From Pseudomonadota bacterium (lineage in GTDB: Bacteria; UBA10199; 2-02-FULL-44-16; JAAZCA01), in the NCBI GenBank assembly GCA_043798915.1, contig JAZDOG010000101.1:21150-85149 (forward strand): DNA of 64,000 bases. The letters are read 5' to 3'. Positions 1-30,910 of the stretch are shown here, in pieces; the stretch's first letter is position 1; each line of letters opens with the position of its first letter. Below the pieces are notes generated by a model. That model was given only the letters and a program-made list of their open reading frames with translations, was not told where the DNA came from and ran no database searches. The position numbers and the translations under genes were made by a program.

Positions 1-2
1 CC

Positions 3-1490: not shown

Positions 1491-1494
1491 TAAA

Positions 1495-3542: not shown

Positions 3543-3624
3543 CATTAATGTTAATCTCTACTCAAAATCTGATTCACCGTGTCACTTTGTTAAAGACGTA
3601 GAAATGCAAGGAGCGATAAACAAT

Positions 3625-4743: not shown

Positions 4744-5591
4744 GTACAGTTGTCGAACTATTTGGTCATGCCGTTGATAGCCAGCGGAAAGATTGGGCAC
4801 GTGTTGTACGTAATCAGCAATGTCCATTTTTAGAAAAGACATGTTACAAGGTTCGAAAGAGCGATCCTAATATCTCAATAGGTTCATGTACTGTACTCTA
4901 CGGTAGGACCAAAGAACCTGTTGTTATCTGCCCAACACGCCTTCTTGAACGACACCAGATATTCACCGATTGCTTGCATCTTTTAACCATGCATGAGCCG
5001 GGGAATGAGCTCCACATTATTCCCGAAGTTTCAATACCTGGTGGAAGCGTTGATTATTTCTTGGCTTCCGCGCTAAAGGGAAAGGTAAAAGATTTCGTTG
5101 GTATCGAGATTCAGACGTTGGATACTACAGGTACCGTGTGGCCGGAACGTCAGCGACTGCTCAAAAAACTTGGAATTCCGCGTAGAGACAAAGAAGAGTT
5201 ATCCAACAAGTCCTACGGTATGAACTGGAAAATGACCGCCAAAACGATCTTAGTCCAGATGCACCATAAGATTCAAACTTTTGAGCATGTCAACAAAAAG
5301 CTAGTACTTATCTTACAGGATAAACTTTTCCAGTACATGACTAATGAATTTACATTTGGACATTTAAATAAACCGGCAATCCTGGGCGATTCAATGCATA
5401 TGCATGTGTATCAATTAGAAAAGCAGGTTAACCGACTGTTTAAGTTAGGGATGAATGCTCGATTAAGCACGGACTCCGAAGGAATTGCGGCATGCCTTGG
5501 TCTCCAAGCGGAAGCTCGAGTTGAGTTGACTCAAATTGTTGCTGCTCTTGAAGCGAAGCTATCTCCAAGCACGCTTCTCAAGCCAGTATAA
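4740..5591 (+). CDS. NotI-family type II restriction endonuclease-like protein
   Basis: 'ELFG', Cys cluster 'CPF....C.K.RKS......GSC..........ICP.R' and PD-(D/E)xK-like 'VDYFL...GIEIQTLDTTG'. ATGA overlap with the methyltransferase stop. Confidence 0.75.
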   Translation: MSTVVELFGHAVDSQRKDWARVVRNQQCPFLEKTCYKVRKSDPNISIGSCTVLYGRTKEPVVICPTRLLERHQIFTDCLHLLTMHEPGNELHIIPEVSIPGGSVDYFLASALKGKVKDFVGIEIQTLDTTGTVWPERQRLLKKLGIPRRDKEELSNKSYGMNWKMTAKTILVQMHHKIQTFEHVNKKLVLILQDKLFQYMTNEFTFGHLNKPAILGDSMHMHVYQLEKQVNRLFKLGMNARLSTDSEGIAACLGLQAEARVELTQIVAALEAKLSPSTLLKPV

Positions 5592-5729
5592 CTGTGGTTG
5601 TTCCAAAAGGCATCGGCCTTAGAAAAAGAGTTTCCCGATGTGGAAGTTGTTGAAGATGTTGGTTTTTAAATGGGGGTGCTGCAAAAGTGGTCAGTTGTGA
5701 GCAATTGATGCAGATGTTATTTCAGCGCG

Positions 5730-5912
5730 GTTACTGAGGACTGCATAACTTATTGCGCAGATGACACAGGATGATGAGCCGAGACAAGGAAGATGAGCAA
5801 AAAGCGCGGAGGCGTAGCCATAGCTACGTTGAGCACTTTTTGCGAAATCTGACGCAGTCGCAGGCCATCAGCCGAAGTCAGATGTGTAATAAGTTATGCA
5901 GTCCTCAGTAAC
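5730..5912. repeat. Long palindromic element (MITE/REP-like) with perfect 25-bp terminal inverted repeats
   Basis: gttactgaggactgcataacttatt (5730-5754) is the exact reverse complement of 5888-5912; the interior is also self-complementary. Confidence 0.85.
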
Positions 5913-6141
5913 ATATGCTAACCAAACGGTGCGAGCTGGCTTCATGGGATCCCCGCGGCGCTCCTCGGTTGCCACGATCTCCATGGCAAAACCCGCGCCT
6001 CGGGATGACAGGCAGGGGGAGAAATGAGCAGTTTGCTCGTTCATTCAAGGCCGACTGGCTGATTTGCTCCTGCCACTAAACCTCCGGCGGGCAGGTAGGG
6101 CGCGGCAATCGGGGGAGAGCAAGAGACCTAGAGGCCATAAT

Positions 6142-7155
6142 ATGAAACTAGTCAAACGATTGGATAATCAATTCGCCGAAGTTGTAAGGATGATTCATGA
6201 GGCCCGGTACAATGCTATCAAGAGCGTCAACACCGAGCTGGTCAAACTATATTGGAGCATAGGCGGGTATGTCAGCAGAAAGATCGAATCCGCGGAATGG
6301 GGCGATGCCGTTGTGGACAGCCTTGCCGATTTCATTCAAACTAACGACCCGGAATTTAAGGGTTTTACGCGACGGAGCCTTTACAGGATGCGCCAGTTTC
6401 ATGAAACATACCCGCAGAAGAAATTTGTGTCGGCAGTGCTGACACAAATCAGCTGGACCAACCACCTGCTCATACTCTCCAAAACTAAATCAATGGAGGA
6501 GCGTAAATTTTACCTGATGTTATCCGTGAAGGAAAAATATAGTTCGCGCGAGCTTGAGCGTCAGATAGACAGCGGTTATTATGAACGAGCAATGCTTTCC
6601 AGGAAAAAAGTGTCGCCAGCGCTGATACAAATTCACCCTGGTATAACAGACGTTTTCAAAGACATCTACGTTTTGGATTTCCTGAGTCTCCCAGCGATGC
6701 ACAGCGAAAAAGACCTTCAAACAAGTATTGTTGCCAATTTAAGGGACTTTATCCTTGAATTCGGCAAGGATTTTACATTCATCGGCCAAGAATATCGAAT
6801 TCAAGTGGGTAAGAACGACTATTTCATTGATCTTTTATTCTTTCACCGAGGACTGAAATGTCTCGTTATGATCGAATTGAAGATAACCGATTTTAAGCCG
6901 GAGTATCTTGGCAAGCTGAATTTCTATTTGGAAGCGCTGGACCGCGATATTCGAAAAGAGGGAGAAAATCCAAGCGTAGGCATTATTCTATGCAAGTCAA
7001 AAGACGATGAAGTTGTGGAATACGCGCTCAGCCGCAATCTATCGCCTGCCATGATTGCTGAATATAAAACAAAGCTCATCCCTAAAAAAATATTGCAGAA
7101 GAAGCTACACGAGTTGTTTATGCTAAACGAACCAGACATAAAGAATGACAGGTAA
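6142..7155 (+). CDS. YhcG/DUF1016 PD-(D/E)xK nuclease-domain protein
   Basis: 'VNTELVKLYWSIG', 'GFTRRSLYRMRQF', 'SRELERQI', 'DLLFFHRGLKCLVMIELK', 'ENPSVGIILCK'. Confidence 0.92.
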   Translation: MKLVKRLDNQFAEVVRMIHEARYNAIKSVNTELVKLYWSIGGYVSRKIESAEWGDAVVDSLADFIQTNDPEFKGFTRRSLYRMRQFHETYPQKKFVSAVLTQISWTNHLLILSKTKSMEERKFYLMLSVKEKYSSRELERQIDSGYYERAMLSRKKVSPALIQIHPGITDVFKDIYVLDFLSLPAMHSEKDLQTSIVANLRDFILEFGKDFTFIGQEYRIQVGKNDYFIDLLFFHRGLKCLVMIELKITDFKPEYLGKLNFYLEALDRDIRKEGENPSVGIILCKSKDDEVVEYALSRNLSPAMIAEYKTKLIPKKILQKKLHELFMLNEPDIKNDR

Positions 7156-7320
7156 TTGAGTGAGCGGGGATACGATACTTAATTCGTCGCACTACTGGCA
7201 ACGGGAGCTATAAAGCAAAAGGGACCCAGTGAAGGGCCCCCAAGCTCTAGAATTAGTGATCTTGCGATCGTCTTAAGACTAACAGAGTGTGCTGAATAAA
7301 TCAAGCCCAGCTGGAGAGGG

Positions 7321-7386
7321 TTGTATGAAAAATCAGTTGTTAGGAATTTCCGAATAACTGCCGCAGATGGGAAGAGTTATGACATG
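7321..7386 (+). pseudogene. Fragment of a RhuM-family gene
   Basis: Translates to LYEKSVVRNFRITAADGKSYDM, matching the RhuM core motif; no intact ORF surrounds it. Confidence 0.6.
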
Positions 7387-7388
7387 GG

Positions 7389-7536
7389 GAAAGTGATGGA
7401 ACCGATGATTTGTCGAGCGGCGTCTGAGCGAGCCGAAATCAGCAGCCTTAAAAGCTCGGCGAGCGAGGCGCAGGCGAACCGCCGGCGTCTGAGGCGGTGA
7501 GCCGTAGCGAGACATATCACCGGTTCCATCACTTTC
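7389..7536. repeat. Palindromic element with 16-bp perfect (about 26-bp imperfect) terminal inverted repeats
   Basis: gaaagtgatggaaccg (7389-7404) pairs with cggttccatcactttc (7521-7536). Confidence 0.8.
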
Positions 7537-7540
7537 ACAG

Positions 7541-8857
7541 ATGTCCATGGTTACACTCCTCAGATTCATAGTCTGGTTCTTGGGGTGGGCGGCGAGGCCT
7601 TTCAGGCGCAAGTGGCGCCCCGGTATGCCCATCGAGTGCCTCGTCGTCGGCTATGGCGGCGCCAACAACACGGGCGCTGAGGCGAGGACGGTCGAGGCGA
7701 TCCGGCAGATGCTCGATGCCGATCCCCGCATCCGCGTCACGCTCACCTCGCTCGACAGGGGGCAGACCCTTCGCTACATCGAGGAAGCGGAGCGCCTTCG
7801 CGTGGCCCAGATCGATCCGGTCTTTCTCGTGAGCGTCCTCCTCCTCGTCCTTCGCTCCGACATCGTGGTGCTGGTAGAGGGGAGCTGCTTCAAAGAAAAC
7901 TTTTCCTCGGCGCTCCTGTGGTTCTTCCTCTATGCGGCGGACCTGGCCCACAGGTTCGGGCTGCCTACGGTCTCCTACGGGGTGGACGCCGGCAAGCTGT
8001 CGAAGAAAAACCGGGGCTGGGCCGCAGCGGTTGCCAATCGCATGGACCTGCTGATGGTCAGGACCGCCGCCGCCGCGCGCGTCCTGCGCTCGATGGGAGT
8101 GGGGCGCGAGATAGCCGTGACGACCGACACCGCCTTCACGATCCGGCCGGAAGGACGGGAGTGGGTCGAGACGATCCTTACATCTCAAGGCATAGACCTC
8201 AAGAGGCCCGTCGTGGGGATCGCCTTCGAGGAATTCTTCTGGTGGCCGGTCGTGCCGTCGATCTGGCGCGCCATCCTGGGGGTCAAGAAGGACCGCTACA
8301 AATCGATCTATTACCACTCGTGGGGTACCGAAGGGAAGGTGAAGAGCCTCCTCATGAGGGAGCAGGTGGCTTCCTACGCAGACTGGGCCGCGTCGGAACT
8401 CGGCGCGCAGGTGATCTTTTTTGCGATGGAGAGGCTAGACATCGGTCCTTGCCGCGACGTGCAGTCGCTGATGAAATCGAAATCCATCCTGATCGACTCG
8501 GACCACGCGAACGCGCGCCAGGTCGCGGCGCTCCTGCGCTCGCTCGACTGGCTTGTCACGTGCAGATATCACGCGCTGGTGCTGGCCATGGGGGGCTCCG
8601 TGCCGACCATCGGGCTTGCGCACGACGAGCGCATCACGGCGATCATGGATGAGTTGGGCTTCATCGACGAGGGTTTCATCTCTCACGAGGAGCGGCGGGT
8701 GTTCGATCTCCTGAAGGAGAAGACGCTCCTGCTCAGGCGCGATTCCGCTCGCTTCCGGCGCGCCATCGAGCACGCGATGCCGGGCTATCTCGACCGCATG
8801 GCCGAGAACGGCAGGCGCTTCGCAGCCCTCGTCAAAGAAAGATTCCCTTCGGAATAG
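7541..8857 (+). CDS. Polysaccharide pyruvyl transferase family protein (CsaB/WcaK-like)
   Basis: 'VGYGGANNTGAEA' at the N-terminus and 'CRYHALVLA...VPTIGL' near the C-terminus. Confidence 0.75.
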   Translation: MSMVTLLRFIVWFLGWAARPFRRKWRPGMPIECLVVGYGGANNTGAEARTVEAIRQMLDADPRIRVTLTSLDRGQTLRYIEEAERLRVAQIDPVFLVSVLLLVLRSDIVVLVEGSCFKENFSSALLWFFLYAADLAHRFGLPTVSYGVDAGKLSKKNRGWAAAVANRMDLLMVRTAAAARVLRSMGVGREIAVTTDTAFTIRPEGREWVETILTSQGIDLKRPVVGIAFEEFFWWPVVPSIWRAILGVKKDRYKSIYYHSWGTEGKVKSLLMREQVASYADWAASELGAQVIFFAMERLDIGPCRDVQSLMKSKSILIDSDHANARQVAALLRSLDWLVTCRYHALVLAMGGSVPTIGLAHDERITAIMDELGFIDEGFISHEERRVFDLLKEKTLLLRRDSARFRRAIEHAMPGYLDRMAENGRRFAALVKERFPSE

Positions 8858-18266: not shown

Positions 18267-18928
18267 TCGATCCGAATAAAAAAGATCCCACGTCGGTTTC
18301 GCCTTCGGATGTCTGCTACAGGGCCTTCGAGCTCATGGCCGCAAAGCAGTACGTCGATGCGGAGAAGCTCCTGGCGGCCAACATGTCGCGCTCCGACGAC
18401 GACGCAGCAATCGCCCTCTACCATTCCGCGATGGGGGTCCTCTTCAAGATGCAGGGGGAGTATAAGACCGCCTGGAAGCACTACGAGCGCGCCGAGAAAC
18501 TCCTCCCGGATGACCCTGCGCTCAAGATCATCTCGGCCAGGCTCCTCATCGAACAGTTCGCCGAGTACGGTCAGGCGATAAAGAGGGCGAAGAAGGTCCT
18601 TGATCTGATACCCGGCAACCCCGTTTTCGCGCATCAGGCCTATACCACCATGGGGCTCGCCCACATCCGCAAGGGCGACAGGAAGAAGGCGGTGAAGATG
18701 CTGGGTCTCTCGCAGTGCGATGACTTCAGGGGGTTCGTCTCAGCGAAGAACGTCGACTTCGGGCTCGTCGAGGCGCTCGTCAAGCGCGGCGTCGGCATCG
18801 AGGCGTGCAGGGTCTTTCTCACGAAGGCGAAGGCCTTTGCCGAAGCGACGCGGGAGCAGCAATATATAAATCTCCTCGACCGGATGCTCGCTGCCTTCGA
18901 CACAGAATATTCCTCCAAAGAAATATGA
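18263..18928 (+). CDS. TPR-repeat protein
   Basis: TPR-like helices such as 'MGVLFKMQGEYKTAWKHYERAEKLLPDD'; overlaps both neighbours by ATGA. Confidence 0.7.
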   Translation: MIDPNKKDPTSVSPSDVCYRAFELMAAKQYVDAEKLLAANMSRSDDDAAIALYHSAMGVLFKMQGEYKTAWKHYERAEKLLPDDPALKIISARLLIEQFAEYGQAIKRAKKVLDLIPGNPVFAHQAYTTMGLAHIRKGDRKKAVKMLGLSQCDDFRGFVSAKNVDFGLVEALVKRGVGIEACRVFLTKAKAFAEATREQQYINLLDRMLAAFDTEYSSKEI

Positions 18929-20316
18929 CTCAAGCCAGGCTGATAGACACCCACGCCCACCTCACATTTCCGGAGTTCGACTCGGACCGCGCCGCGGTCC
19001 TTGAGCGCGCATGGGAGACGGGCCTCGATGACATTGTCCTCGTCGGCGCCGGCGAGGGGTTGGAAGGCAACGCGCGCGCGCTTGAGCTCGCCCGCACGGA
19101 CGAGCGCCTCTTCGCGATCGTGGGCGTGCATCCGCACGACGCGGGGAAGATGGAGGTCTCGTGGCTGGGGGAGCTGGAAAAGTTCGCTGCGGACGAGAAG
19201 GTGGTGGCGATCGGCGAGGTCGGGCTCGATTATCACCACAAGGAAACCGATCCGGATGTCCAGCGTAAATGTTTCAGGGGGATGCTCGCCCTGGCGGAAA
19301 GGGCGGGCAAGCCCGTCGTCATACACGATCGCGAGGCGCACGACGACGTGTGGCGGATCATCGAGGAGGTCGGCGTCCCGAAGCGGGGCGGCCTCTTCCA
19401 TTGCTTCTCCGGGGATTCCAGGTTTGCCGGCTGCGTGACGGAGGCAGGTTTTCATATCTCCATTCCCGGGGTGGTGACGTTTAAAAACGCGAGGATCCTT
19501 CAGGAGGTGGTAGCCGACATTCCGCTCGAGCGCATGGTGATAGAGACGGACTGCCCCTTTCTCGCCCCGGAGCCGCACAGGGGAAAGCGGAACGAGCCGG
19601 CCTTCGTCTCTCTGGTGGCGAAGAAGATCGCCGAGATCAAGGGGCTCTATCCCGAAGATGTCGCGCGCGTGACGACCTTGAACGCCAGGCGCCTCTTCGG
19701 TCTGCCCGGCTGCGAGCTCGAGCCCCACATCGCCTATCGGATCCGCAATTCGCTCTATCTGAACATCACTAACAGGTGCAATCTCGCCTGCCGCTTCTGC
19801 CCGAAGTTCACCGACTACGAGGTGAAGGGATATTACCTGAGGCTCCACACCGAGCCGGACGTCGAACAGATATTCCAGGCGATGGGCCAGCCCGAGAACT
19901 ACGACGAGGTCGTCTTCTGCGGGTACGGCGAGCCGACGCTACGCATCGAGGTGCTCAAGGCCATCGCAAAGCGCATGAAGGAGAAGGGGGTCGCCAGAGT
20001 CCGGCTCAACACCGACGGGCTGGCGTGTCTCCTCTATGGGCGCAACGTCCTTCTGGAGCTCGCCGGGCTCATCGACGCCGTCTCCGTCTCGCTCAATGCC
20101 TCCGATGCAGAGACCTACACGAATAATTGCCCTTCCAGATTCGGGCTCGATGCGTACAATGCTGTCTGCGCGTTCATCGCGGAAGCGAAGCGCCACATCC
20201 CGGAGGTTACAGCGTCGATCGTCGCGCTTCCGGGCATCGATGTCGAGGCGTGCCGCAGGAAGGCCGCGGAGCTGGGAGTGCCTCTGCGCGTGAGAGAATA
20301 CATGAATGTTGGGTGA
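18925..20316 (+). CDS. TatD-family hydrolase fused to a TatD-associated radical SAM domain
   Basis: 'IDTHAH', 'GEVGLDY', 'ETDCPFL', then 'LYLNITNRCNLACRFC' and 'VVFCGYGEPT'. Confidence 0.9.
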   Translation: MTQARLIDTHAHLTFPEFDSDRAAVLERAWETGLDDIVLVGAGEGLEGNARALELARTDERLFAIVGVHPHDAGKMEVSWLGELEKFAADEKVVAIGEVGLDYHHKETDPDVQRKCFRGMLALAERAGKPVVIHDREAHDDVWRIIEEVGVPKRGGLFHCFSGDSRFAGCVTEAGFHISIPGVVTFKNARILQEVVADIPLERMVIETDCPFLAPEPHRGKRNEPAFVSLVAKKIAEIKGLYPEDVARVTTLNARRLFGLPGCELEPHIAYRIRNSLYLNITNRCNLACRFCPKFTDYEVKGYYLRLHTEPDVEQIFQAMGQPENYDEVVFCGYGEPTLRIEVLKAIAKRMKEKGVARVRLNTDGLACLLYGRNVLLELAGLIDAVSVSLNASDAETYTNNCPSRFGLDAYNAVCAFIAEAKRHIPEVTASIVALPGIDVEACRRKAAELGVPLRVREYMNVG

Positions 20317-21112: not shown

Positions 21113-23544
<2,432 letters not shown>

Positions 23545-23548
<4 letters not shown>

Positions 23549-24372
23549 CGCGTAAAATTACAATCGGTGTCATGGTCTGCATCGTTCTCTTTAGCCTGCA
23601 GGGCTGCAAGCCCAGGGGCTTTGATGCGGATTTCAAAGCGGCAGAGGCGGCGGTCGGAATTGGCGACAACGACGGCGCGCTGAACGCCTACCGCGCCGTG
23701 GTCGATCGCTACCCGGCCGATCCGCGCCGGTGCGGCGTCCTCCTCAAGATCGCAGATATCTACGACACCTCCCTCCACGACGACATCTCCGCCGCCCGCG
23801 CCTATGCGAGGGTGATAAAGGAATATCCGCTCTCCGATGTGTCGGTGCCGGCTCGCGAGCGCCATGCGCTGCTCATGGAGAAGAAGGGCGATTTCGACGG
23901 CGAGATCGAGGACTATTCCGATCTGCTCAAACACTTTCCCGAGAGCCCCGACAGATACAGATACCGCGTGCTCATGGCCGGCGCTTATCTTTCTCAGCGG
24001 AACTTCGGGCAGGCCAGGATGGAGATCAAGCCCCTGCTCGATGACAGACAGATTCCGCCTGAGGTGCGCGAGCAGGCGCTCTTCGTCGCCGGCGAGAGCT
24101 TCTTTCTCGAGGACCATCCGGAGAAGGCCGCGCCATATTATCAGCAGATGCTCAGGGAGTTCCCGAATTCAAAGCTGGCGTCCGAGGCCGAGCTCCACTT
24201 CGCGACGTGCGCCGAGGAGATGGGCTATCTTGGGACGGCCCGCGACATCACGAGGGACGCCGCACGCGACTATCCCAACAAAAAGGTGATCGATGCGAAG
24301 CTCAAGAGCATAAAGGAGCGGGCCACAAAGCACGCCGAGCCGGCACCGCCGGCAGGACAGAAGAAGCCCTGA
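23545..24372 (+). CDS. TPR lipoprotein (BamD/CpoB-like)
   Basis: Lipobox 'LQGC' and TPR repeats with 'YP/FP.S' turns. Confidence 0.7.
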
Positions 24373-24447
24373 ACCATCTAAAAAGCGGTTTACAAACAGC
24401 GCCACCATGGGTTAGCCTCCGGCGCCTTGAAAGGAAAAGGAGATCAT

Positions 24448-24882
24448 ATGGCAAACGAACGCACGCTGGCCATAATCAAGCCCGATGCCCTCGAGAAGGG
24501 GATCATCGGCGAGATATGCAGGAGGATCGAGGACGCCAGCCTCAAGATCGTCGGCATGAAGATGTTGAAGCTTGAGCGCCAGCGCTCCGAGGGTTTCTAT
24601 GCCGTCCACAAGGGCAAGGTCTTCTTCGAGAGCCTCACCAAGTTCATGACATCCGGCCCCTGTGTCGTGATGGCGCTCGAGGGTGCAGGTGCGATCAAGA
24701 AGTGGCGCGAAACGATGGGTGCCACGAACCCGGAGGAAGCGGCCGAAGGGACGATACGCCGCGACTGGGGGACGAACATCGAGCGCAATGCCGTGCACGG
24801 TTCCGACGCCCCGGACACAGCAAAGTTCGAGATCGCATATTTCTTCGAGTCGAATGAGATAGTGCAGTATGAGTGGGTGTAG
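24448..24882 (+). CDS. ndk: Nucleoside diphosphate kinase
   Basis: '[11 protein letters not shown]...NAVHGSD'. Confidence 0.97.
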
Positions 24883-24903
24883 AACCCGTCGCTCGTGACT
24901 CGT

Positions 24904-24972
24904 GTGTATCAAATCATCGACCATACCGCCGATGCAGGCCTCTGGCATGCGCAGGTGATCTTCGACATCTGA
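24904..24972 (+). pseudogene. Internally deleted archease remnant
   Basis: Reads (M)YQIIDHTADAGL-WHAQVIFDI*, i.e. the archease N-terminal DHTAD motif joined to its C-terminal motif. Confidence 0.7.
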
Positions 24973-25040
24973 AATCCCCTTTTAAAAGTCCTTTAATGTC
25001 AATAACTTGAACGCCGGGAAACGTCCCCTGCATTTTTCAC

Positions 25041-25067
25041 GCAACTTTGTCTGAAACCCGCCGATAA
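25041..25067 (+). promoter_or_regulatory. Putative sigma-28 (FliA/WhiG)-like promoter
   Basis: GCAACTTT-N11-GCCGATAA; the -10 box equals the sigma-28 consensus. Confidence 0.65.
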
Positions 25068-25110
25068 ATGAGGTGGAGCAGAACCTTCCCCTGTTTATCA
25101 GGAGGTAAAG

Positions 25111-27351
25111 ATGGCGGTCTGTGGAAGGAATCGAATCAAGTGCAAAACCTTGGCTGATCTTCCGGTCTGCGACCCCCAAAAGGACTGGAATTTGCTCAAG
25201 CTTGACCCGCTCAGCATGGAGACTCCGGAGTGGATGGGGATCGATCACCTGCTTGTAAATAAGACCGCCACTCGAGGCACGGTCCTTCGTTTTGTCCGAC
25301 CGGAATTATTGGAAGATTTGAAAGCGTCGTTATCCGAAGGATTTCGCCCGACCGAACCTGCAGAGCTGGATGAATTCATATCCCAGGATACTGTCAGAGC
25401 ACACGGATATGCCGGCTTCTGCAAATCTACGCATGTGATTAAGGATGATGGCAGGCAGCTGTGGGGCGTATACAAGTGGCACGGCACTCCCAGTGAATAT
25501 CTCGCTGTTTTCAACAAGTACAATTCCGACAAACACATCCAGATGGAGTCCAACGGTTTCGAACTCTCCGTCGAGGAGATGACGGGCTTGATCGGGGCGC
25601 TGAAACTCGGAAGCAAGGACTACTACTGCGACGGAGATGGTTGTCCCCGCGAACTGCCTGTCCAATCGCAGAGCGCCTGCGGATCCAACTACACCAAGGG
25701 CACCTATTTTTTCACATCGAAACCCGAACGCCTCAATAACCTGATCGAGATGCTCGGGAAGAAAAAAGAGGGGGATGGCTATCAGCTGAAGGTCGGCGGT
25801 CTCGCCGATCTCCGCCGGGAGGAGTTGATCAAACATTTGAAGGACATCCTGCCCAAACCGTCGGAGCAGAAAACGCCACAGTACGTATGGTGGCTTGTTG
25901 GCACCAATTTCCTGGTGGCTGCGGCCATCGTGGGCCCCCAGCTCAAGGAACTCTATCGGTGGTGGAGGGGCAGGGTGAAGACGGTGGATTTTGGGGCCAT
26001 CGTGAAAAAGAAGATCGAGGCCGATTCCTCATATACGGTGAAGGGCCGCGAGGCCGAGGCGAGGGAGGCCTGGAAGATGACGGACGCGGATCCAGGAATC
26101 GATGAATTTCCGCATCTGCTGATCGATCTCGCGACCGGCGAGGGCAAGGACAAGCTTTACGAGGAGATGATAATCCTCAAGGAGAAGGGCGACCCGTCCG
26201 TGCCGGAAAGATGGCGGAACGCCGCCGTCGTGGATGTGGATCCTGCCAGCTTTCAGTCCGACACCAAATGGCGCGGCAATGTGGCCGACAAGGTGACCGA
26301 GATCGGGGAAAAAGCCAGGAAGGGCCCGTTGGTAGTGAGGATGCGCGAAGGGGATAAAATATTCCTGAGCGGGGGGGCTTCAAGCAGCGACTCCGAGGTG
26401 GTCGCCGGGCTCATGCTCGCGAAGCTGGAGGAGCCAGGGGTGCGCGAAAACCTCCTTCTGGTGATAACCACGAGCCGCGGCGATGAGATGATTGCGAAAC
26501 ATCCGGATCTTTTCCGCCGCTTCAACAAGCCCGGGCTTCACATCTTCAGCGTGGCCGAAGTGATCGATGCCCTCGACGGGCCCACCAGGAAGGCATACGA
26601 AAAGAAACGAGGCGTCAAGATTCCGCGCGAGGTTATCGGCGCGGCTGCGCGCATTGCTGAATCCTATTACCGGCCATCGAGGGTCGTCGTGAATGCAACG
26701 ACAAGAAAAGAGTTCATGCTTGCGCGCTTCGACGCCACGAAGAACCTCCTGTCCGATGCCGCAAAGATGGCCGCGAAACGCGGCAAAGGAACGGTTGTCA
26801 CGGTCAGCGACGTCATCGCCGCGGCAGAGGGGCGCATCGGCAAAAAGCTCGATCACGGTCAGGTCGAGGCCAGGATCGAAAAAGAAAGAGGGGTGGAGGA
26901 GGCGGCCAAGGCCAGGGCGGGCACGGAAGCGGCGCCAGCAAAGGGTGGTGCGCCTGTGTGCAGGGCGGACGAGGCCCCTGGCGAGCGGCCGGCTCCCGTT
27001 GATAACAGGACTGAGGCCTTGCGCCTTGTGATCGTTGCAGACAGAGAGTTGTCCACCCGGCTGCCGCGATACGACGATTTGCCTGAGGCAAGAAAAAGAG
27101 CGATTGTGGACTGCTTATATAAAACTTTGTTGGATAATGGCTTCAGGCAGACATATGTCCGGGATGGCAGAATAACGGCTGGGGGCTTAGAACAATTGAT
27201 CGCTCGCGTAAAAGGGTATGCATCAGTCGCCGCGCCGGAAGGGCCGGTGCGTCCTGAACGAGCGGCCGATGCTGATGGTGCTGATAAGGATGGCAGAAAA
27301 AAGGACACTGAACGTGATAAGGGGCGAAGGGGCGAAGTTCCGGGCAAATAG
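25111..27351 (+). CDS. Orphan protein: unknown N-domain, hydrophobic helix, degenerate ClpA/B NBD1-like AAA+ domain, shared C-terminal module
   Basis: 'VKGREAE', 'ATGEGKD', 'VPERWRN', 'TKWRG', 'LFRRF', 'YEKKRGVKI', 'AAARIAESY' are colinear with ClpB NBD1; AGGAGG RBS. Confidence 0.7.
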   Translation: MAVCGRNRIKCKTLADLPVCDPQKDWNLLKLDPLSMETPEWMGIDHLLVNKTATRGTVLRFVRPELLEDLKASLSEGFRPTEPAELDEFISQDTVRAHGYAGFCKSTHVIKDDGRQLWGVYKWHGTPSEYLAVFNKYNSDKHIQMESNGFELSVEEMTGLIGALKLGSKDYYCDGDGCPRELPVQSQSACGSNYTKGTYFFTSKPERLNNLIEMLGKKKEGDGYQLKVGGLADLRREELIKHLKDILPKPSEQKTPQYVWWLVGTNFLVAAAIVGPQLKELYRWWRGRVKTVDFGAIVKKKIEADSSYTVKGREAEAREAWKMTDADPGIDEFPHLLIDLATGEGKDKLYEEMIILKEKGDPSVPERWRNAAVVDVDPASFQSDTKWRGNVADKVTEIGEKARKGPLVVRMREGDKIFLSGGASSSDSEVVAGLMLAKLEEPGVRENLLLVITTSRGDEMIAKHPDLFRRFNKPGLHIFSVAEVIDALDGPTRKAYEKKRGVKIPREVIGAAARIAESYYRPSRVVVNATTRKEFMLARFDATKNLLSDAAKMAAKRGKGTVVTVSDVIAAAEGRIGKKLDHGQVEARIEKERGVEEAAKARAGTEAAPAKGGAPVCRADEAPGERPAPVDNRTEALRLVIVADRELSTRLPRYDDLPEARKRAIVDCLYKTLLDNGFRQTYVRDGRITAGGLEQLIARVKGYASVAAPEGPVRPERAADADGADKDGRKKDTERDKGRRGEVPGK

Positions 27352-27354
27352 GAG
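27011..27354 (+). repeat. Diverged direct repeat, copy 1 (copy 2 at about 29246-29583)
   Basis: Shared blocks gatggcagaataacggctg, cgcgtaaaagggt.tgcatcagtcgccgcgccgg.agggccggtgcg and ggcaaataggag. Confidence 0.85.
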
Positions 27355-27362
27355 GACATGCT

Positions 27363-28178
27363 ATGACGGTATACAATATTGATCCGACGACAAAAGTTGT
27401 GCTGGATGGTCCATACCAAGGGGAGATCGTGGCGCCCTGCTCCGAGCTCTCCGGCACGATGCGCCTGCCTGATGTGCTCTTGTCCAGGGATGAAGGCGTG
27501 GCGATACGTTCCCGGCACAATCTGAACACATCGCAATTCCATCTGGATATCGAGTCGCCGGTGAATGGTGTTTACTGCATGGCGTATAAAAATCCCTCGA
27601 TGAACAAGTCGTTCGTTGACAATTTCAAGTGTTCCTACGTGGGAGAATCGCCCGTGATGGCATGGTTCCGCGACTTGGTGCCTTTTATGGAGACATCCAG
27701 ATGCTCGACAGTGAAAAAGGGCATGAAGCCTTTTCTTCCGCACGAGGAGCCCGGGGAACTCGCTAAACTCTGGGATGGCACTCGCAACGGTCTGACGTTT
27801 GCCGTTGGCATGGCCATCGTGGACAGGGTGCTGAAGAGGTATGCCGGCTGGTCTCCGCTGGAATCGGCTTTGAAGACTGCCGCAAACTGGATGGGAAGGG
27901 GTGGGCCTGGGAGCGCAGGCGGCGCGGGCGGTGCAGCAAGCGGCGCAGGCGAAGGCTCCGGGGCCAGTGGGGCGCCACCTGCTGCCGAGGCCCCCGGAGG
28001 TCCTCCACAATCAACTTTCAGTCTTCCTTCGATCCCTGTTCCAACGCCGGAAGAAGCCGCAAAGATAGGAACATGGATGTTGATTATGGGGATTATGGGA
28101 ATTATGCTCGACAGTGCATTGAAGGCAGCGTGTCCAGTCTTTATAATAAGGCCCGCCGAAGAGAGAGTGGAGGCCTAA
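27363..28178 (+). CDS. Orphan hypothetical protein with Gly/Pro-rich linker and hydrophobic C-terminal helix
   Basis: AGGAGG RBS 11 nt after the previous stop; no family recognised. Confidence 0.7.
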   Translation: MTVYNIDPTTKVVLDGPYQGEIVAPCSELSGTMRLPDVLLSRDEGVAIRSRHNLNTSQFHLDIESPVNGVYCMAYKNPSMNKSFVDNFKCSYVGESPVMAWFRDLVPFMETSRCSTVKKGMKPFLPHEEPGELAKLWDGTRNGLTFAVGMAIVDRVLKRYAGWSPLESALKTAANWMGRGGPGSAGGAGGAASGAGEGSGASGAPPAAEAPGGPPQSTFSLPSIPVPTPEEAAKIGTWMLIMGIMGIMLDSALKAACPVFIIRPAEERVEA

Positions 28179-28203
28179 AGATAGTTGGAATGGAGGAAGT
28201 CCT

Positions 28204-29580
28204 ATGGCTGGCCCAGATGGCAAAATACCCAAGGCACCTGGTTCGCCTGGCGTCGAAATCGATAGTGATTATGCACGCCAGTTAGGTTGCAGGCCGGGTG
28301 AAGAAGATCCTCCCGCCGATGCATGCCGGACTGCAATAGAGCCTGACAGGTATACGTCGGCGAGCCTCCCCACTCCGCCCCCCACTGCTCCATTTGCACC
28401 GCCAGGGCGTTTTGCGCCTGCCCCGCCAACGGCATCAAACGCAGCAAGCGAGGCAGCGACAGCTACAGGCTCGGCGGTCTCCGGGAAAGGCCCTCTCGAG
28501 ACTGCCAGGTTTTTTAGAGAACTCGCTGCCGAAACTCTGCAGGAAACAAAGAGGCCAGGCGTAAATGTATCCGCTTTAGAGGCGCAGGCAGCTGTGCTTA
28601 TTCTCGACGCGGTTGTATTGGAGCAGGAAAATGGCGGGTCAAGCGCGCGATTTACAGGGGGACTCAGGCAGGTTGCAAAAAATAGAGCCGATTCCATTTT
28701 AGATGAAGCCCGCAGGGCACAGAGGTCAGGAGCGGAGAGGTTGAGGTCAAGCGACGACGGGAAATTCTCCGAGGGGTTGGATTTAATTATGGCCGCCAGC
28801 AGAGGATATGATCTAGCGCGCCTGCTCTTCGAAACCATCGATCTTGACCTCGAGAGCGCAATTCGTGGCTCGGAGCAGGTTGATTTCTTGAGGAAGGCGG
28901 CGGAAAAAGCGTTTTCACGCAAGAAGTATCTACAACAGGCCCTCGACTTGTTTGACCTGGCTTTGCAAGCAAGCGGTGGCAGTGGTGATTCCCTGGAAAA
29001 ACTCAGGATTATAAGAACCCAAACCGGAGGTACCAAGAAGCTTGTGAGATTCTATCAAAAAGCGCTTTCTTCGCCTGTTCCGCAACTTTTACAGCAACGA
29101 CAATTTTCTTTGCCTGGATACGACAATGCCGGGCCTGTAGATATGAGCAAGGCTTTTGCGAATTTACGTCGTTTCAGGATTGCTCCGGACTCTCCTCTGC
29201 CGCCTCAAGCCTTGCCGTTGGCAAGTTCCCCGCAGACGCTCGAGGCTGAGGCCATCAGTCTTACGGCCGATGCAGTCAGTGAGTTGCCCAGCCGGTTGCC
29301 GGGATACCGCGATTTGCTTCCGGAGAGAAAGGCAGAGATTGAGGGCTCCATATATAAAAATTTATTGGATGGGGACTTCAGGAGTGCATATATCCGTGAT
29401 GGCAGAATAACGGCTGAGGGTTTCGAACAATTGGCTGCCCGCGTAAAAGGGTCTGCATCAGTCGCCGCGCCGGCAGGGCCGGTGCGGCCTGAGCGAGCGG
29501 AGGATGATCGGCCGGTCAGGGACGACAGGGATGGCAGAGAGGACGTTGAACGCGCAAAGGGCAAAGTTTTTGGCAAATAG
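28204..29580 (+). CDS. Orphan helical protein with Pro-rich N-region and shared C-terminal module
   Basis: GGAGG RBS; the last ~110 aa are homologous to the C-terminus of 25111-27351. Confidence 0.72.
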   Translation: MAGPDGKIPKAPGSPGVEIDSDYARQLGCRPGEEDPPADACRTAIEPDRYTSASLPTPPPTAPFAPPGRFAPAPPTASNAASEAATATGSAVSGKGPLETARFFRELAAETLQETKRPGVNVSALEAQAAVLILDAVVLEQENGGSSARFTGGLRQVAKNRADSILDEARRAQRSGAERLRSSDDGKFSEGLDLIMAASRGYDLARLLFETIDLDLESAIRGSEQVDFLRKAAEKAFSRKKYLQQALDLFDLALQASGGSGDSLEKLRIIRTQTGGTKKLVRFYQKALSSPVPQLLQQRQFSLPGYDNAGPVDMSKAFANLRRFRIAPDSPLPPQALPLASSPQTLEAEAISLTADAVSELPSRLPGYRDLLPERKAEIEGSIYKNLLDGDFRSAYIRDGRITAEGFEQLAARVKGSASVAAPAGPVRPERAEDDRPVRDDRDGREDVERAKGKVFGK

Positions 29581-29642
29581 GAGATGGAGTTTCGAGGCAT
29601 TCCAGTGGGCCGATCCCGAAATGCTGAAAGAAATGCTGAATC

Positions 29643-29680
29643 AGGGGACGTTTCTCCCCCCGAAAAGAGAAACGTCCCCT
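29643..29680. repeat. 14-bp-stem hairpin (REP-like or terminator)
   Basis: aggggacgtttctc pairs with gagaaacgtcccct. Confidence 0.7.
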
Positions 29681-29708
29681 TTATCCTGGAGAGGTGTGAC
29701 TTTGGTTG

Positions 29709-30839
29709 TTAGAATATGAGCTGATATTTAGTTGCCGGTCCCTTCCCCTTTTTCTGCAGAAAGCGTTCCTCCAGCAATATATTCAAGGCATAAACCGCGG
29801 TGCGCCGCGGAATTTTAGTGTATTTCACAACATCCCCTGTGCCGAGCTTTTCTTCCGGATGCTCCTTGAAACAGGCAAGGACCTTCCTGGGCGCCTCTGC
29901 CAGACTCAGGAAATCATCGTATCTTCTGGCGTAGAATTCAATGTCATGCCGCAGAGCGGCGGAGATCATTTTGAGCATGAAGGTCAGGAAATATTCGATT
30001 TTGTATTTCTTCGGGTCCTGCAGGAATCTCCCTTTCGAACACTTTCTCAGGACCAGATAATATTCCTCCTTGTTCTTTTCGATGTGCCGGTCGAGCGCGA
30101 TATATGGCATGATTCCAGCCAGGTTTTTGTCGTCTGACTGAAGGATTGCGAGGGCAAAGAGACTTCGCCCGATGCGTCCGTTTCCGTCCTGAAAGGGATG
30201 TATTGCCAGAAAACGGAAGACGAGTTCGCATGCGACGGCGATGCTCCATGGATGCGCCTTGAGATTTGCGTTGTACCAGTCGATGAGTTCATGCATTGCC
30301 GCGATCGTGACCGGGCCCGGATCGGCAGTCTTGAGGACATCCTTCACTGTGTTGGTGCCCAGGATCATCTCGATCACGCTGTTCGGAGAGGTCTTGTATT
30401 TGCCGAGGTAATGCGCAGCAGGAGGGTAAAAACGGAGCAGCTCGGCATGCAGTCCTCTGACGGTCGTTTCCGAGAGCGGAAACAGCTCTCTCGCCTGCGC
30501 ATAGACGATGGTGAGCATATTGCGGCAGCCAGCGACCTCCTCGACGCTCCTCTCGCTCTCTTTCGAGAGCTTGTTTTCGATGTATTTCTTTTTCTGAATG
30601 AAGGCGGTCGGCCTGCCGTCCTGGCTGAGCATTTCATCCATCCAGTCGATTTCGACGTCAGTGAGGATGGCATTTTCGATCCTGGTCGTGGAGCCTATCG
30701 TGCTTATCAGGGCATATCTATGAATTGACTGTTGATGGTCAGGGGAGAGGGTATCGAGAAATGCCCGCTTTTCAGCAGATAAATCAGTGATTTCTTTAAG
30801 TTTTTTTGTCAGATCGTCTGTGATGTTGAAAGAAAGCAT
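29709..30839 (-). CDS. Fic family protein with C-terminal winged HTH
   Basis: 'HPFQDGNGRIGR' and inhibitory-helix-like 'STTRIEN'. Confidence 0.9.
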   Translation of the reverse strand: MLSFNITDDLTKKLKEITDLSAEKRAFLDTLSPDHQQSIHRYALISTIGSTTRIENAILTDVEIDWMDEMLSQDGRPTAFIQKKKYIENKLSKESERSVEEVAGCRNMLTIVYAQARELFPLSETTVRGLHAELLRFYPPAAHYLGKYKTSPNSVIEMILGTNTVKDVLKTADPGPVTIAAMHELIDWYNANLKAHPWSIAVACELVFRFLAIHPFQDGNGRIGRSLFALAILQSDDKNLAGIMPYIALDRHIEKNKEEYYLVLRKCSKGRFLQDPKKYKIEYFLTFMLKMISAALRHDIEFYARRYDDFLSLAEAPRKVLACFKEHPEEKLGTGDVVKYTKIPRRTAVYALNILLEERFLQKKGKGPATKYQLIF

Positions 30840-30850
30840 GCAGATAGATT

Positions 30851-30910
30851 GTGCAATATTGTGCAACTATATGCAACTATTTATTGCACAATATTGCACG
30901 ATACTGCACA
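30851..30910. promoter_or_regulatory. Operator-like array upstream of the fic gene
   Basis: Perfect 16-bp inverted repeat gtgcaatattgtgcaa / ttgcacaatattgcac within a 10-bp-periodic TGCA array. Confidence 0.6.

Follow-up and report, generated by a model that had tools for sequence, protein, structure and literature searches.

The AAA+ module of P0001, a 746-residue protein encoded in the 64 000-nt window analysed here (all positions are those of this window), descends from NBD1 of the Clp/Hsp100 proteins, and its likeness to them is far beyond chance. The AAA+ fold and the Clp origin are in themselves ordinary; the probably membrane-anchored NBD1-only form of the protein, its active site and its evolutionary behaviour are not. 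P0001 belongs to an unnamed, fast-evolving and lineage-restricted family from a small group of uncultured bacteria. The reading that we prefer, and hold tentatively, places it at the core of a membrane-associated conflict or recognition system, so far undescribed, whose parts are coupled in the manner of adaptors.

Ancestry and architecture of P0001

P0001 is a whole gene, an open frame at positions 25111..27351 of the + strand (as are the parts of P0001 and the genes P0004 and P0005 located below), with an AGGAGG Shine-Dalgarno sequence 7 nt upstream of its ATG. Searched as a single sequence, the protein matched ClpL (6lsy) among PDB sequences at 1.9e-6 over residues 342-525, phrog_4871, 'ATP-dependent protease', at 2.2e-10 over residues 342-522, and the NCBIfam ClpA model TIGR02639 at 8.1e-5 and 21 bits, to be read against a cut-off of 993 bits. 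With the family profile, the matches to the PDB were HSP101 at 3.4e-24, ClpA at 3.2e-19, ClpL and ClpC at 2.2e-18 and ClpB at 1.6e-16, all of them confined to NBD1. In the AlphaFold2 model, pLDDT is above 90 across the AAA part (residues 290-600), and a Foldseek search of the PDB with this model ranked ClpA D1 first (7uiy_D, E 1.3e-11, 294 columns, rmsd 3.8 Å), followed by ClpC, ClpB and Hsp104 NBD1. An earlier note on this DNA had claimed colinearity with ClpA/B NBD1, which the profile and structural matches bear out, and the motifs and hydrophobic helix that it quoted all lie in P0001 where it had placed them. Nothing observed here speaks to the mimicry of a host or prey Hsp100 that the note had suggested; the genome encodes a canonical ClpB of its own, of 863 aa.

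The order of parts in P0001 is an N-domain, a hydrophobic helix, the Clp-NBD1-like AAA+ module, a C-terminal helical module and a charged tail. The N-terminal domain (residues 1-250; 25111..25860) is of mixed alpha/beta type according to alignments and models, and the hydrophobic helix, YVWWLVGTNFLVAAAIVGP (residues 258-276; 25882..25938), is a putative single membrane span. The AAA+ module, consisting of a large domain and a lid and homologous to Clp/Hsp100 NBD1, covers residues 290-600 (25978..26910). After residue 606 the model contains a four-helix module and a disordered tail only: the former (residues 632-705), together with the conserved linear motif ASVAAPEGPVRPER (residues 704-717), lies at 27004..27261, and the tail, rich in K/R/D/E and disordered in both sequence and AlphaFold2 model, lies at 27262..27351 and ends in Gly-Lys, many relatives of P0001 also ending in GK or KK.

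The likeness to Clp/Hsp100 NBD1 (ClpA, ClpC, ClpB/Hsp104, ClpL, Plasmodium HSP101) is one of fold and of colinear motifs: a GR box before Walker A (VKGREAE is found at residues 310-316), a VP(E) helix, an aromatic-Arg-Gly pore loop, the catalytic Glu, the sensor-1 Thr, an RRF Arg finger and an NBD1-type lid. In contrast to the Clp/Hsp100 proteins, P0001 lacks Clp_N, NBD2, the ClpP-docking part and apparently the M-domain, and ahead of its AAA module lie a hydrophobic helix and an N-domain whose fold is unrecognised. It thus falls outside class 1 of the Clp proteins, having one AAA+ module and neither NBD2 nor Clp_N. The lack of Clp_N, which like that of NBD2 had been proposed in the earlier note, follows from Pfam giving no match at all (zero families at E <= 0.01), and a second AAA module was seen neither among the sequence matches of P0001 nor in its model. 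To judge from the secondary structure of the model, residues 480-600 hold no long coiled coil such as the M-domain inserted in the NBD1 lid of ClpB and ClpC.

As the note had also supposed, this architecture belongs to no named family: for the P0001 family, weak Clp or AAA matches were the most that Pfam, NCBIfam, PHROGs and PADLOC gave. A few literal literature searches, and those on membrane-helix Hsp100 NBD1 pseudo-ATPases, found no description of the family, which cannot show that none exists. To our knowledge, membrane-anchored NBD1-only Clp derivatives are not a described class.

Hydrophobic helix and N-domain

P0001 is probably anchored in the membrane by its hydrophobic helix, to judge from the sequence features around it. 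The AlphaFold2 helix spans residues 260-286, and the basic stretch RWWRGRVKT directly follows the hydrophobic segment. The membrane-anchoring helix of the earlier note is present and suitable, but it is only moderately hydrophobic, with a Kyte-Doolittle 19-residue mean of 1.44 over residues 258-276. At the same place, a value of at least 1.5 is reached in 16 of 26 scanned family members (the paralogue P0028 included), 15 of these 16 being richer in K/R after the helix than before it.

The N-terminal region contains Cys residues at positions 4, 11, 20, 104, 173, 178 and 190, two of which, C20 and C104, are near-invariant across family alignments. Comparisons of its fold gave a best E of 0.33 with Foldseek on a separate model (pLDDT 70) and a best Z of 3.6, none reaching 5, with VIA-align against 48,161 chains; in the Atlas there was no usable feature match and the structural rows had TM <= 0.36. 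That the fold goes unrecognised is not evidence of a new fold. It would be unusual for 250 residues to lie outside with no signal peptide ahead of them, which counts against the topology proposed below.

A deviant and possibly rewired active site

Both nucleotide-binding motifs of P0001 are deviant. The Walker A motif is LATGEGKD (residues 340-347; 26128..26151) and the Walker B motif VRMREGD (residues 409-415; 26335..26355), so that neither the canonical GxxxxGK[ST] nor hhhhDE is present, the Lys and the Glu being retained. The Walker A Thr and the Walker B Asp are truly lost, as the earlier note had said, because HMMER pairs them with D347 and R412; it pairs the catalytic Glu with E413. The pore-loop-1 equivalent is KWRG (residues 386-389; 26266..26277), which is KYRG in Clp, and the family alignment places the sensor-1 strand ITTSRG (452-457) and the Arg-finger motif LFRRF (467-471) at 26464..26523.

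Across 56 aligned family sequences, Walker A ends in GKD in 40, its Lys (K346) is present in 54 and the catalytic Glu (E413) in 52; R469 and R470 of the Arg finger are found in 47 and 52, respectively. The sensor-1 position, T453, is Thr in 42 sequences and Ser in 5, and the pore loop, W387-R388-G389 in P0001, has an aromatic residue in 38, Arg in 48 and Gly in 55. An Asp precedes the catalytic Glu in eight sequences, every one of which has GK[TS], and in none of the 40 with GKD; family-wide, this position is occupied by Ser, Pro, Lys, Arg or Glu. Two residues past the Glu there is a family-specific Asp (D415), where Clp has His. In a sister group (P0041, P0049) that shares this N-domain and helix, the motifs are still GKS and IDES; the NTPase of the group matches ClpC1/ClpB NBD1 at 2.3e-5.

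Seen in this alignment, the motif changes are conserved family traits and not random ones. Since the residues for hydrolysis and threading are kept and the deviant positions are themselves conserved, the label 'catalytically degenerate' given in the earlier note is doubtful, and we favour a motor that still works, its Mg2+ site being rewired. The module would still bind Mg-ATP, the Walker A carboxylate standing in for the lost Walker B Asp in holding Mg2+, with E413 as the catalytic base. The Walker motif is the most conserved motif in biology; we know of no precedent for an Asp in Walker A, nor, among P-loop NTPases, for a carboxylate moved from Walker B to Walker A, and a literature search on a GKD Walker A in AAA+ proteins found none. 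The family thus provides a natural experiment, in which a carboxylate has taken the place of the Walker A hydroxyl and that of Walker B is given up, with the other catalytic residues all kept. If the enzyme is active, it would represent an alternative way of holding Mg-ATP and a warning against 'pseudo-ATPase' labels drawn from motif loss alone.

The chief alternative, which was the view of the earlier note and which we consider unlikely, is such a pseudo-ATPase, binding ATP at most and forming a static membrane ring or platform on which the carriers of its C-terminal module are organised. It would account for the replacement of two canonical Mg2+-site residues, and P0001 is more deviant than most members, with Leu at Walker A position 1, Arg just before the Walker B Glu and Trp in the pore loop; the P0001 copy could accordingly be less active than its relatives. 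The Pfam AAA model also misses P0001 and reaches 11 of 24 family members. However, at 30% overall identity the Glu (52/56), the Arg finger (52/56), sensor-1 (47/56) and the pore loop are all kept, and the replacements are conserved rather than random. Moreover, the Torsin activators LAP1 and LULL1, true pseudo-enzymes that are AAA+-like, lack both Walker motifs, going by an extract of PMC4999309.

A C-terminal module shared by five proteins

A C-terminal module of ~110 aa is common to five proteins of the same genome: P0001, P0005, P0025, P0028, which is an AAA paralogue of P0001, and P0029, a TPR protein. In P0001 its helices cover residues 632-650, 659-674, 676-682 and 690-705, with pLDDT of about 74-83. 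The last ~115 residues of P0005 are 54% identical to the module of P0001, the two appearing in the DNA as a repeat (27011-27271 and 29246-29506) of 79% identity, and dS among module copies is only 0.24-0.62. Among 1.84 billion representatives, the version found here is carried by no further protein. A word-index search with P0001 residues 625-746 returned P0001 itself only, and says nothing about the spread of the module, because the four other carriers in the same genome were missed as well. None of the five copies matched Pfam at E <= 1, save for one DUF6550 match at 0.1; a weak EAD9 match (0.0066) occurs in one other family member. One weak AAA_16 match (0.0033) falls on P0028, and TPR matches fall on P0029.

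For P0025 there are sub-threshold leads towards a nuclease-toxin-like protein: the Atlas clusters nearest to residues 60-480 are Tox-REase-7, -2 and -5 (0.84-0.87), together with PD-(D/E)XK models, and a PD...EVK motif is visible by eye. Against PDB sequences P0025 matched nothing below E 2, and the word-index homologue search with residues 60-480 found only P0025 itself.

Operon and gene neighbourhood

P0001 is apparently the first gene of a three-gene operon. The second, P0004 (271 aa; 27363..28178), begins 11 nt past the P0001 stop and encodes a Cys-containing N-domain, a Gly/Ala/Pro-rich linker and a C-terminal hydrophobic segment; the third is P0005 (458 aa; 28204..29580). A recurrent partner, encoded downstream, is a small P0004-like protein that has hydrophobic segments: among 15 loci with enough flank, its gene is directly 3′ of the AAA gene in 6 and within two genes in 2 more, and it is missing in 7. 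Complex prediction for P0001 (residues 1-610) with P0004 scored 0.00 in two runs without controls, a result that bears neither way on binding.

Pfam, NCBIfam and PADLOC gave no family for P0004, P0005 or P0025. A SoFic-type Fic gene adjoins the operon (PADLOC 4.8e-30), and IS200-like transposases stand beside two related loci. No PADLOC-DB 2.0 model matches the 9-11 AAA-family proteins tested, P0001 and P0028 among them, nor P0004, P0005, P0025 or P0029. In a scan of positions 24300-30000, six promoter-like sites were found against 2.3 expected, none of them in the 228-nt gap upstream of P0001; terminator-like sites in this interval were at chance level, and no inverted repeats were detected around P0001-P0004-P0005.

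Distribution and evolution of the family

Among 1.84 billion representatives searched, the family has 53 matches at E <= 1e-3, of which 21 at E <= 1e-30. It is present in 15 of the 93 genomes of the phylum, namely in 11 of the 12 other genomes of the same GTDB family, in 3 of 9 in the rest of the order and in 0 of 71 elsewhere. P0001 is thus no 'orphan', as the earlier note had called it, having at least 53 representative relatives; a word-index homologue search with P0001 found only 2 relatives.

In five genomes the AAA gene of the family stands at the same gyrA-TPR-ndk site. Identities at this site are 78-80% for gyrA, 77-84% for ndk and 48-52% for the TPR protein, and only 24-32% for the AAA protein. 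Two near-identical strains, with flanks about 0.3% divergent, differ in the AAA gene by 29 nt and 25 aa, and the N-domain holds 21 of the changes. The dN/dS for this gene is 3.9, a value that rests on 29 differences; 14 of these cluster in 65 nt and could represent a single recombination tract. The N- and C-terminal modules have been exchanged with neighbouring genes. Because a fixed site goes together with 24-32% identity between genera, with these strain changes in the N-domain, with exchange of the end modules and with a C-terminal module spread over five proteins, the family hints at a conflict or recognition system that has gone unstudied, in a poorly known phylum of uncultured bacteria with small genomes.

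Retention of the gene at one site by housekeeping genes in nearly all genomes of the family fits a core function of the lineage at least as well as it fits a defence island, and perhaps better. P0001 could then be a lineage-specific housekeeping unfoldase or extractase of the envelope, similar to a protease-less FtsH or to Msp1, with P0004 as adaptor or substrate and no role in conflict. The presence in 11 of 12 related genomes, the constant place after gyrA-TPR-ndk, the conserved pore loop and the recurrent small partner with hydrophobic segments would all agree with this. Such machines, however, rarely fall to so low an identity beside neighbours at ~80%, rarely show an excess of amino-acid change between strains and rarely swap modules with neighbouring genes, and the partner is lacking in nearly half of the loci; a purely housekeeping role therefore appears to us quite improbable.

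Type-III export genes

The genome carries a type-III export gene set (FliH/SctL, an SctN-type ATPase, YscO-like, FliM/N, FliOPQR and FlhA) and gave no match for flagellin or for rod/hook proteins. P0001 and its relatives could in principle be exported or translocated effectors, for example through a non-flagellar type-III-like apparatus; the helix would then enter the membrane of a target, and the C-terminal module with the basic tail, or the N-terminal motif of the relatives, would be the sorting signal. The motif in question, M-x-[SG]-G-G-[EQ], is common to the AAA and P0004 families of other genomes, where it lies downstream of real ribosome-binding sites. The moderate hydrophobicity of the helix, the fast protein evolution and a C-terminal module present on five proteins, one of them with nuclease-toxin-like leads, are also in keeping with export. 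Nevertheless, no family locus lies near the type-III genes, and both P0001 and P0004 are without the N-terminal motif; C-terminal type-III signals are not known to us. The type IV and type VI markers PF02534, PF03135 and PF05943 (VirD4, VirB4, TssC) were unmatched in the genome, which is 97% complete, and an ATP-driven ring with a basic stretch past its helix suits a resident inner-membrane protein. Export has, in our opinion, a low probability. A flagellar origin of the type-III genes, considered as an explanation of the family, was rejected, no link being seen in any locus.

Finally, that P0001 is a decaying gene or a chance ORF is extremely improbable, for nothing beyond the two motif changes speaks for it, and the intact 746-codon frame with its ribosome-binding site, the confident AlphaFold2 fold, the conserved relatives and a dN/dS of about 0.12 between the congeneric orthologues L009 and L010 (with dS saturated) lead us to reject a pseudogene and the neutral decay that the earlier note had envisaged.

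Proposed mechanism and comparison with known systems

In the conflict or recognition system that we prefer, P0001 would form Clp-like rings at the cytoplasmic face of the membrane, its pore loop gripping a polypeptide, and the variable Cys-containing N-domain, beyond the membrane, would serve in recognition or sensing. The C-terminal module may act by homotypic binding, like the effector-associated domains (EADs) of NTPase conflict systems, and thereby couple the ring to P0005, P0029, P0028 and P0025. The whole would be an undescribed membrane-associated conflict system, serving either defence or cell-cell recognition. A bolder version, somewhat unlikely in its full detail, is that a Clp-derived motor with a shifted Mg2+ carboxylate (GKT...hhhhDE to GKD...hhhh[S/P]ExD) is the ATP-driven hub of an immune or kin-recognition system, with a rapidly diversifying outside sensor, a small partner in the membrane and, at the C-terminus, a Death-domain-like adaptor for the recruitment of effectors, for instance a restriction-endonuclease-fold toxin.

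Three groups of known proteins resemble parts of this picture. In FtsH, Msp1/ATAD1 and Bcs1, a hydrophobic anchor precedes a single AAA+ module, whose aromatic pore loop is on the ATP-containing side of the membrane, and in this anchor and single module they resemble P0001. They belong, however, to the classical AAA clade, whereas the Clp NBD1 matches of the P0001 family beat those to Cdc48/p97 by more than 10 orders of magnitude; they are also not known to have an N-domain or C-terminal module of the P0001 type, and FtsH has a protease.

The Walker A motif of Torsins ends in GKN. With their partners LAP1 and LULL1, Torsins are Clp-related AAA+ proteins that work at membranes with a non-canonical active site; they resemble the D2/HCLR type and lack an Arg finger, which the partner supplies (as far as an extract of PMC4999309 goes). 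The P0001 family, by contrast, is of NBD1 type and has an RR finger of its own.

As for EAD systems, the NTPase cores described in an extract of Kaur, Burroughs, Iyer and Aravind (2020, PMC7159879) are STAND, MoxR-vWA or GTPase, whereas the core here is a Clp-like AAA+ and the module matches no Pfam EAD model. The arrangement is otherwise the one by which the same extract defines EADs: a small, helical, non-enzymatic module is carried by an NTPase core and by other proteins, encoded next door and elsewhere, and copies of the module from the same genome resemble one another most.

Origin and architecture

P0001, the AAA+ protein under study, is encoded by an intact open reading frame of 746 codons (25111-27351, + strand), with an AGGAGG 7 nt 5′ of the ATG. 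In an AlphaFold2 model (mean pLDDT 79.7), computed from an alignment of 24 family sequences (A1), five parts can be told apart: an N-domain of mixed alpha/beta structure (residues about 40-250, pLDDT about 75-95), a long helix (260-286) with a hydrophobic stretch (258-276) in it, an AAA+ module (290-600, pLDDT mostly >90), a four-helix module (632-705, pLDDT about 74-83) and a disordered, charged tail whose last residues are Gly-Lys. The N-domain fold (model pLDDT 70) had no recognised match with Foldseek (best E 0.33) or VIA-align (best Z 3.6).

Against PDB sequences, P0001 alone matched NBD1 of ClpL, ClpC and ClpA, the top match being 6lsy (1.9e-6, residues 342-525). It also matched PHROG 4871, ‘ATP-dependent protease’ (2.2e-10), and NCBIfam ClpA at 8.1e-5, yet with 21 bits for a cut-off of 993. 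A Pfam search with P0001 matched no family; PF00004 was detected in 11 of 24 family members. The family profile, searched against PDB, found Plasmodium HSP101 (3.4e-24), ClpA (3.2e-19), ClpL and ClpC (2.2e-18) and ClpB (1.6e-16), always on NBD1, and Cdc48/p97-type proteins ranked below at about 1e-10 or weaker. With the P0001 model, the top Foldseek match was ClpA D1 (7uiy_D, E 1.3e-11, 294 columns, rmsd 3.8 Å), followed by ClpC, ClpB and Hsp104. Neither a second AAA+ module nor a Clp_N domain was found in Pfam, in the PDB profile matches or in the model. P0001 is thus a Clp-NBD1-derived protein, and an earlier note, whose quoted motifs are all in place, was right on this origin, on the architecture of one AAA+ module and on the absence of a named family.

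The same note took the protein for an orphan, which it is not: when 1.84 billion representatives were searched exhaustively with HMMER, 53 proteins (query counted) matched at E ≤1e-3, of which 33 at E ≤1e-10 and 21 at E ≤1e-30. Relatives in public records come from MAGs that carry the labels Myxococcales, Deltaproteobacteria or Pseudomonadota. Among the 93 species genomes of the window's phylum, 15 had a member by the family profile at E ≤1e-35; these include 11 of the 12 others in its GTDB family and 3 of the 9 that make up the remainder of the order, with none in the 71 genomes elsewhere in the phylum. The genome that contains the window (2.34 Mb, 97% complete) also encodes a second, divergent AAA paralogue, P0028 (contig C71), and a canonical 863-aa ClpB.

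A probable relocated carboxylate in the active site

In P-loop and AAA+ enzymes Mg2+ is bound directly by the Walker A Ser/Thr and through water by the Walker B Asp, while the Glu, sensor-1 and Arg-finger residues take part in hydrolysis. In the HMMER alignments, LATGEGKD falls on Walker A GxxGxGKT and VRMRE on Walker B hhhhDE, so that Thr has become Asp (D347) and Asp has become Arg (R412), the catalytic Glu (E413) being kept. Residues were counted over 56 non-redundant aligned sequences, made up of the family and some ten canonical Clp sequences also caught by the search. The Walker A Lys is present in 54, and the last residue of the motif is Asp in 40 and Thr or Ser in 10. The catalytic Glu is found in 52, with Asp in three more; it is preceded by Ser (20), Pro (14), Asp (8), Glu (6) or other residues (8), and 34 sequences have an Asp two residues past it. 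The pore loop has an aromatic residue in 38, Arg in 48 and Gly in 55, sensor-1 is Thr in 42 and Ser in 5, and the Arg finger residues R469 and R470 occur in 47 and 52. Asp precedes the Glu in eight sequences, every one of which has GKT or GKS, and in none of the 40 GKD sequences; since the sequences fall largely into two clades, this exclusion counts as one or a few events in evolution and not as 40 separate ones. In a sister group (P0041, P0049), this N-domain and helix are joined to an NTPase with GKS and IDES that matches ClpC1 and ClpB NBD1 at 2.3e-5. A literal-term literature search found no precedent for a Walker A GKD.

Because the Glu, sensor-1, the Arg finger and the threading loop are conserved at an overall identity of about 30%, it is likelier that the family is enzymatically active, with a carboxylate that has moved, than that it is dead, and ‘catalytically degenerate’, as the earlier note had it, is probably wrong. 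That P0001 is a pseudo-ATPase scaffold seems unlikely to us. P0001 deviates more than the typical member (Leu at Walker A position 1, shared with P0013, Arg preceding the Glu, Trp in the pore loop) and retains all the near-invariant family residues. Nor is the gene decaying neutrally, the outcome that the earlier note had set against its own proposal, since the congeneric orthologues of loci L009 and L010, 58% identical, give dN 0.31 with saturated dS, that is a dN/dS of about 0.12 or less.

Membrane anchor and diversification

The P0001 helix is borderline, at 1.44 in a 19-residue Kyte-Doolittle window, and 16 of 26 scanned members (P0028 included) have a segment of at least 1.5 at the same place. 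In 15 of these 16, Lys and Arg are more numerous after the helix than before it. The positive-inside rule is used to orient membrane helices; by this rule, the AAA+ module is predicted to be cytoplasmic and the N-domain to lie outside. The P0001 N-domain has no signal peptide; its C20 and C104 are nearly invariant in the family, which would suit a putative extracellular disulfide.

Strains L013 and L014 are near-identical, with 1-4 nt changed per 500 nt of flank. Their AAA genes show 29 nt differences leading to 25 amino-acid changes (dN/dS 3.9), of which 21 fall in the N-domain (residues 47-347), with 14 nt within 65 nt, whereas the adjacent P0004-like gene has a dN/dS of 0.11. The pattern, which represents few events, is consistent with a putative outside domain under diversifying selection or subject to patchy recombination.

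The locus and its partner genes

Upstream of P0001 lie gyrA (21113-23548), a TPR gene (23545-24372) and ndk (24448-24882), followed by a 228-nt gap. P0004 (27363-28178) starts 11 nt after the P0001 stop, and P0005 (28204-29580) 25 nt after that of P0004. Convergent with this operon is a 385-aa Fic-domain gene (29709-30866, − strand; PADLOC SoFic 4.8e-30, phrog_5978 4.3e-32); an aldolase gene also lies downstream on the opposite strand. The gyrA-TPR-ndk-AAA order recurs in four other family genomes (L029, L030, L032, L033), with identities to the window's copies of 78-80% for gyrA, 77-84% for ndk and 48-52% for TPR, but only 24-32% for the AAA protein, three of the four belonging to a second subfamily with GESGVGKD and YFPE[IL]AD. 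The site is therefore stable and its occupant fast-changing or replaced by paralogues. Other family loci lie between unrelated housekeeping genes. Further upstream, a 503-aa ORF (18805-20316, +) with a TatD-type DNase/hydrolase domain (5.1e-82) and a radical-SAM domain (2e-16) represents an unusual fusion or else two genes joined in ORF calling. The G+C content is 41-50% over 1-8000 and 54-63% over the remaining window.

A profile of P0004 and four relatives found a P0004-like gene in 8 of 15 loci: directly 3′ of the AAA gene in the window, L009, L010, L013, L032 and L036, and within two genes in L029 and L038. It found none in L011, L012, L030, L031, L033, L035 and L037. L013 stands also for L014 and L028, which represent this locus or a nearly identical one, and L007, L008 and L015 were excluded for their short flanks. 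P0004-like proteins are built like small versions of the AAA proteins, with a Cys-containing N-domain, a hydrophobic segment and a basic or low-complexity stretch. Many proteins of both kinds start M-[FVIL]-[SG]-[GA]-G-[EQK] (e.g. L009:2647; L030:8863, − strand; the P0004-like genes of L009, L010 and L013) after good ribosome-binding sites. This start, missing from P0001 and P0004, could be an export or processing signal.

A shared C-terminal module

Four other proteins of the genome end in a stretch that is 50-58% identical to the C-terminal ~115 residues of P0001: P0005 in the same operon, the paralogue P0028, P0029 (TPR repeats) and the 919-aa P0025. The latter two form a gene pair (C31:25190-29353, − strand; L034:7191-11354) beside an IS200-like transposase gene (L034:6086-6814). 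The DNA segments 27011-27271 and 29246-29506 share 79% identity, and their similarity continues through the stop codon. The 10 pairs of copies have a dS of only 0.24-0.62 and dN/dS of 0.51-1.17, so the copies are young or homogenised and, on average, weakly constrained, around an almost fixed core (LP.Y..L, RDGRIT, AS.AAPA.P.RPER). None of the five copies matched Pfam at E ≤1, and no carrier of this version was found outside the genome among the representatives searched. In L011 it is the N-terminal ~200 residues of the AAA protein that are shared, with the product of a 1495-aa gene upstream. In P0011, P0019, P0026, P0032, L012:7374-10163 and L033:6412-9561, long C-terminal extensions, rich in Gly/Ala and hydrophobic stretches, replace the helical module; they may be membrane-inserting effector parts.

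Kaur et al. (PMC7159879) describe effector-associated domains (EADs) as small, helical and non-enzymatic, with one copy on an NTPase core and others next door and elsewhere, same-genome copies being closest to each other, and propose that they couple effectors to NTPase cores by homotypic binding. The P0001 module resembles them in all these features of size, fold, placement and kinship, but the NTPase cores that they describe are not Clp-like.

Among the carriers, P0025 has internal ~110-aa repeats. Its residues 60-480 come closest to the Atlas clusters Tox-REase-7, -2 and -5 (0.84-0.87, below the bar of 0.9), several PD-(D/E)XK models match them by structure, and PD...EVK is visible by eye; P0025 is a sub-threshold candidate for a restriction-endonuclease fold, a lead and not a result. 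Directly downstream of P0028 is a 1628-aa ORF (C71:17177-22063; L035:9178-14064) that matches no Pfam family.

Possible functions

Our preferred reading, held tentatively and at somewhat less than even odds, is that P0001 is a hub of conflict or recognition, a membrane-anchored, probably active Clp-NBD1-derived AAA+ ring. The N-domain would be its diversifying sensor, P0004 its small membrane partner, and the EAD-like C-terminal adaptor would join the ring to other proteins of the genome. An exported effector family is improbable, more so than the pseudo-ATPase scaffold; a type-III export gene set in the genome keeps the idea alive, but no family locus lies near these genes. A lineage-specific housekeeping extractase is equally improbable. 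VirD4, VirB4 and TssC had no match in the genome, nor had flagellin (PF00669) or rod/hook proteins (PF00460).

The type-III set (C20:50700-63300, L043:6767-19332; C42:16881-19058, L040:12882-15059) comprises FliH/SctL, a SctN-type ATPase with a T3SS_ATPase_C domain, YscO-like, FliK-like, FliM/FliN, FliOPQR and FliG-like genes, together with TPR genes and a sigma-54 activator with a YscD-like FHA domain. The FlhA/SctV gene stands apart from them, right after secA and ahead of a CHASE2-cyclase gene.
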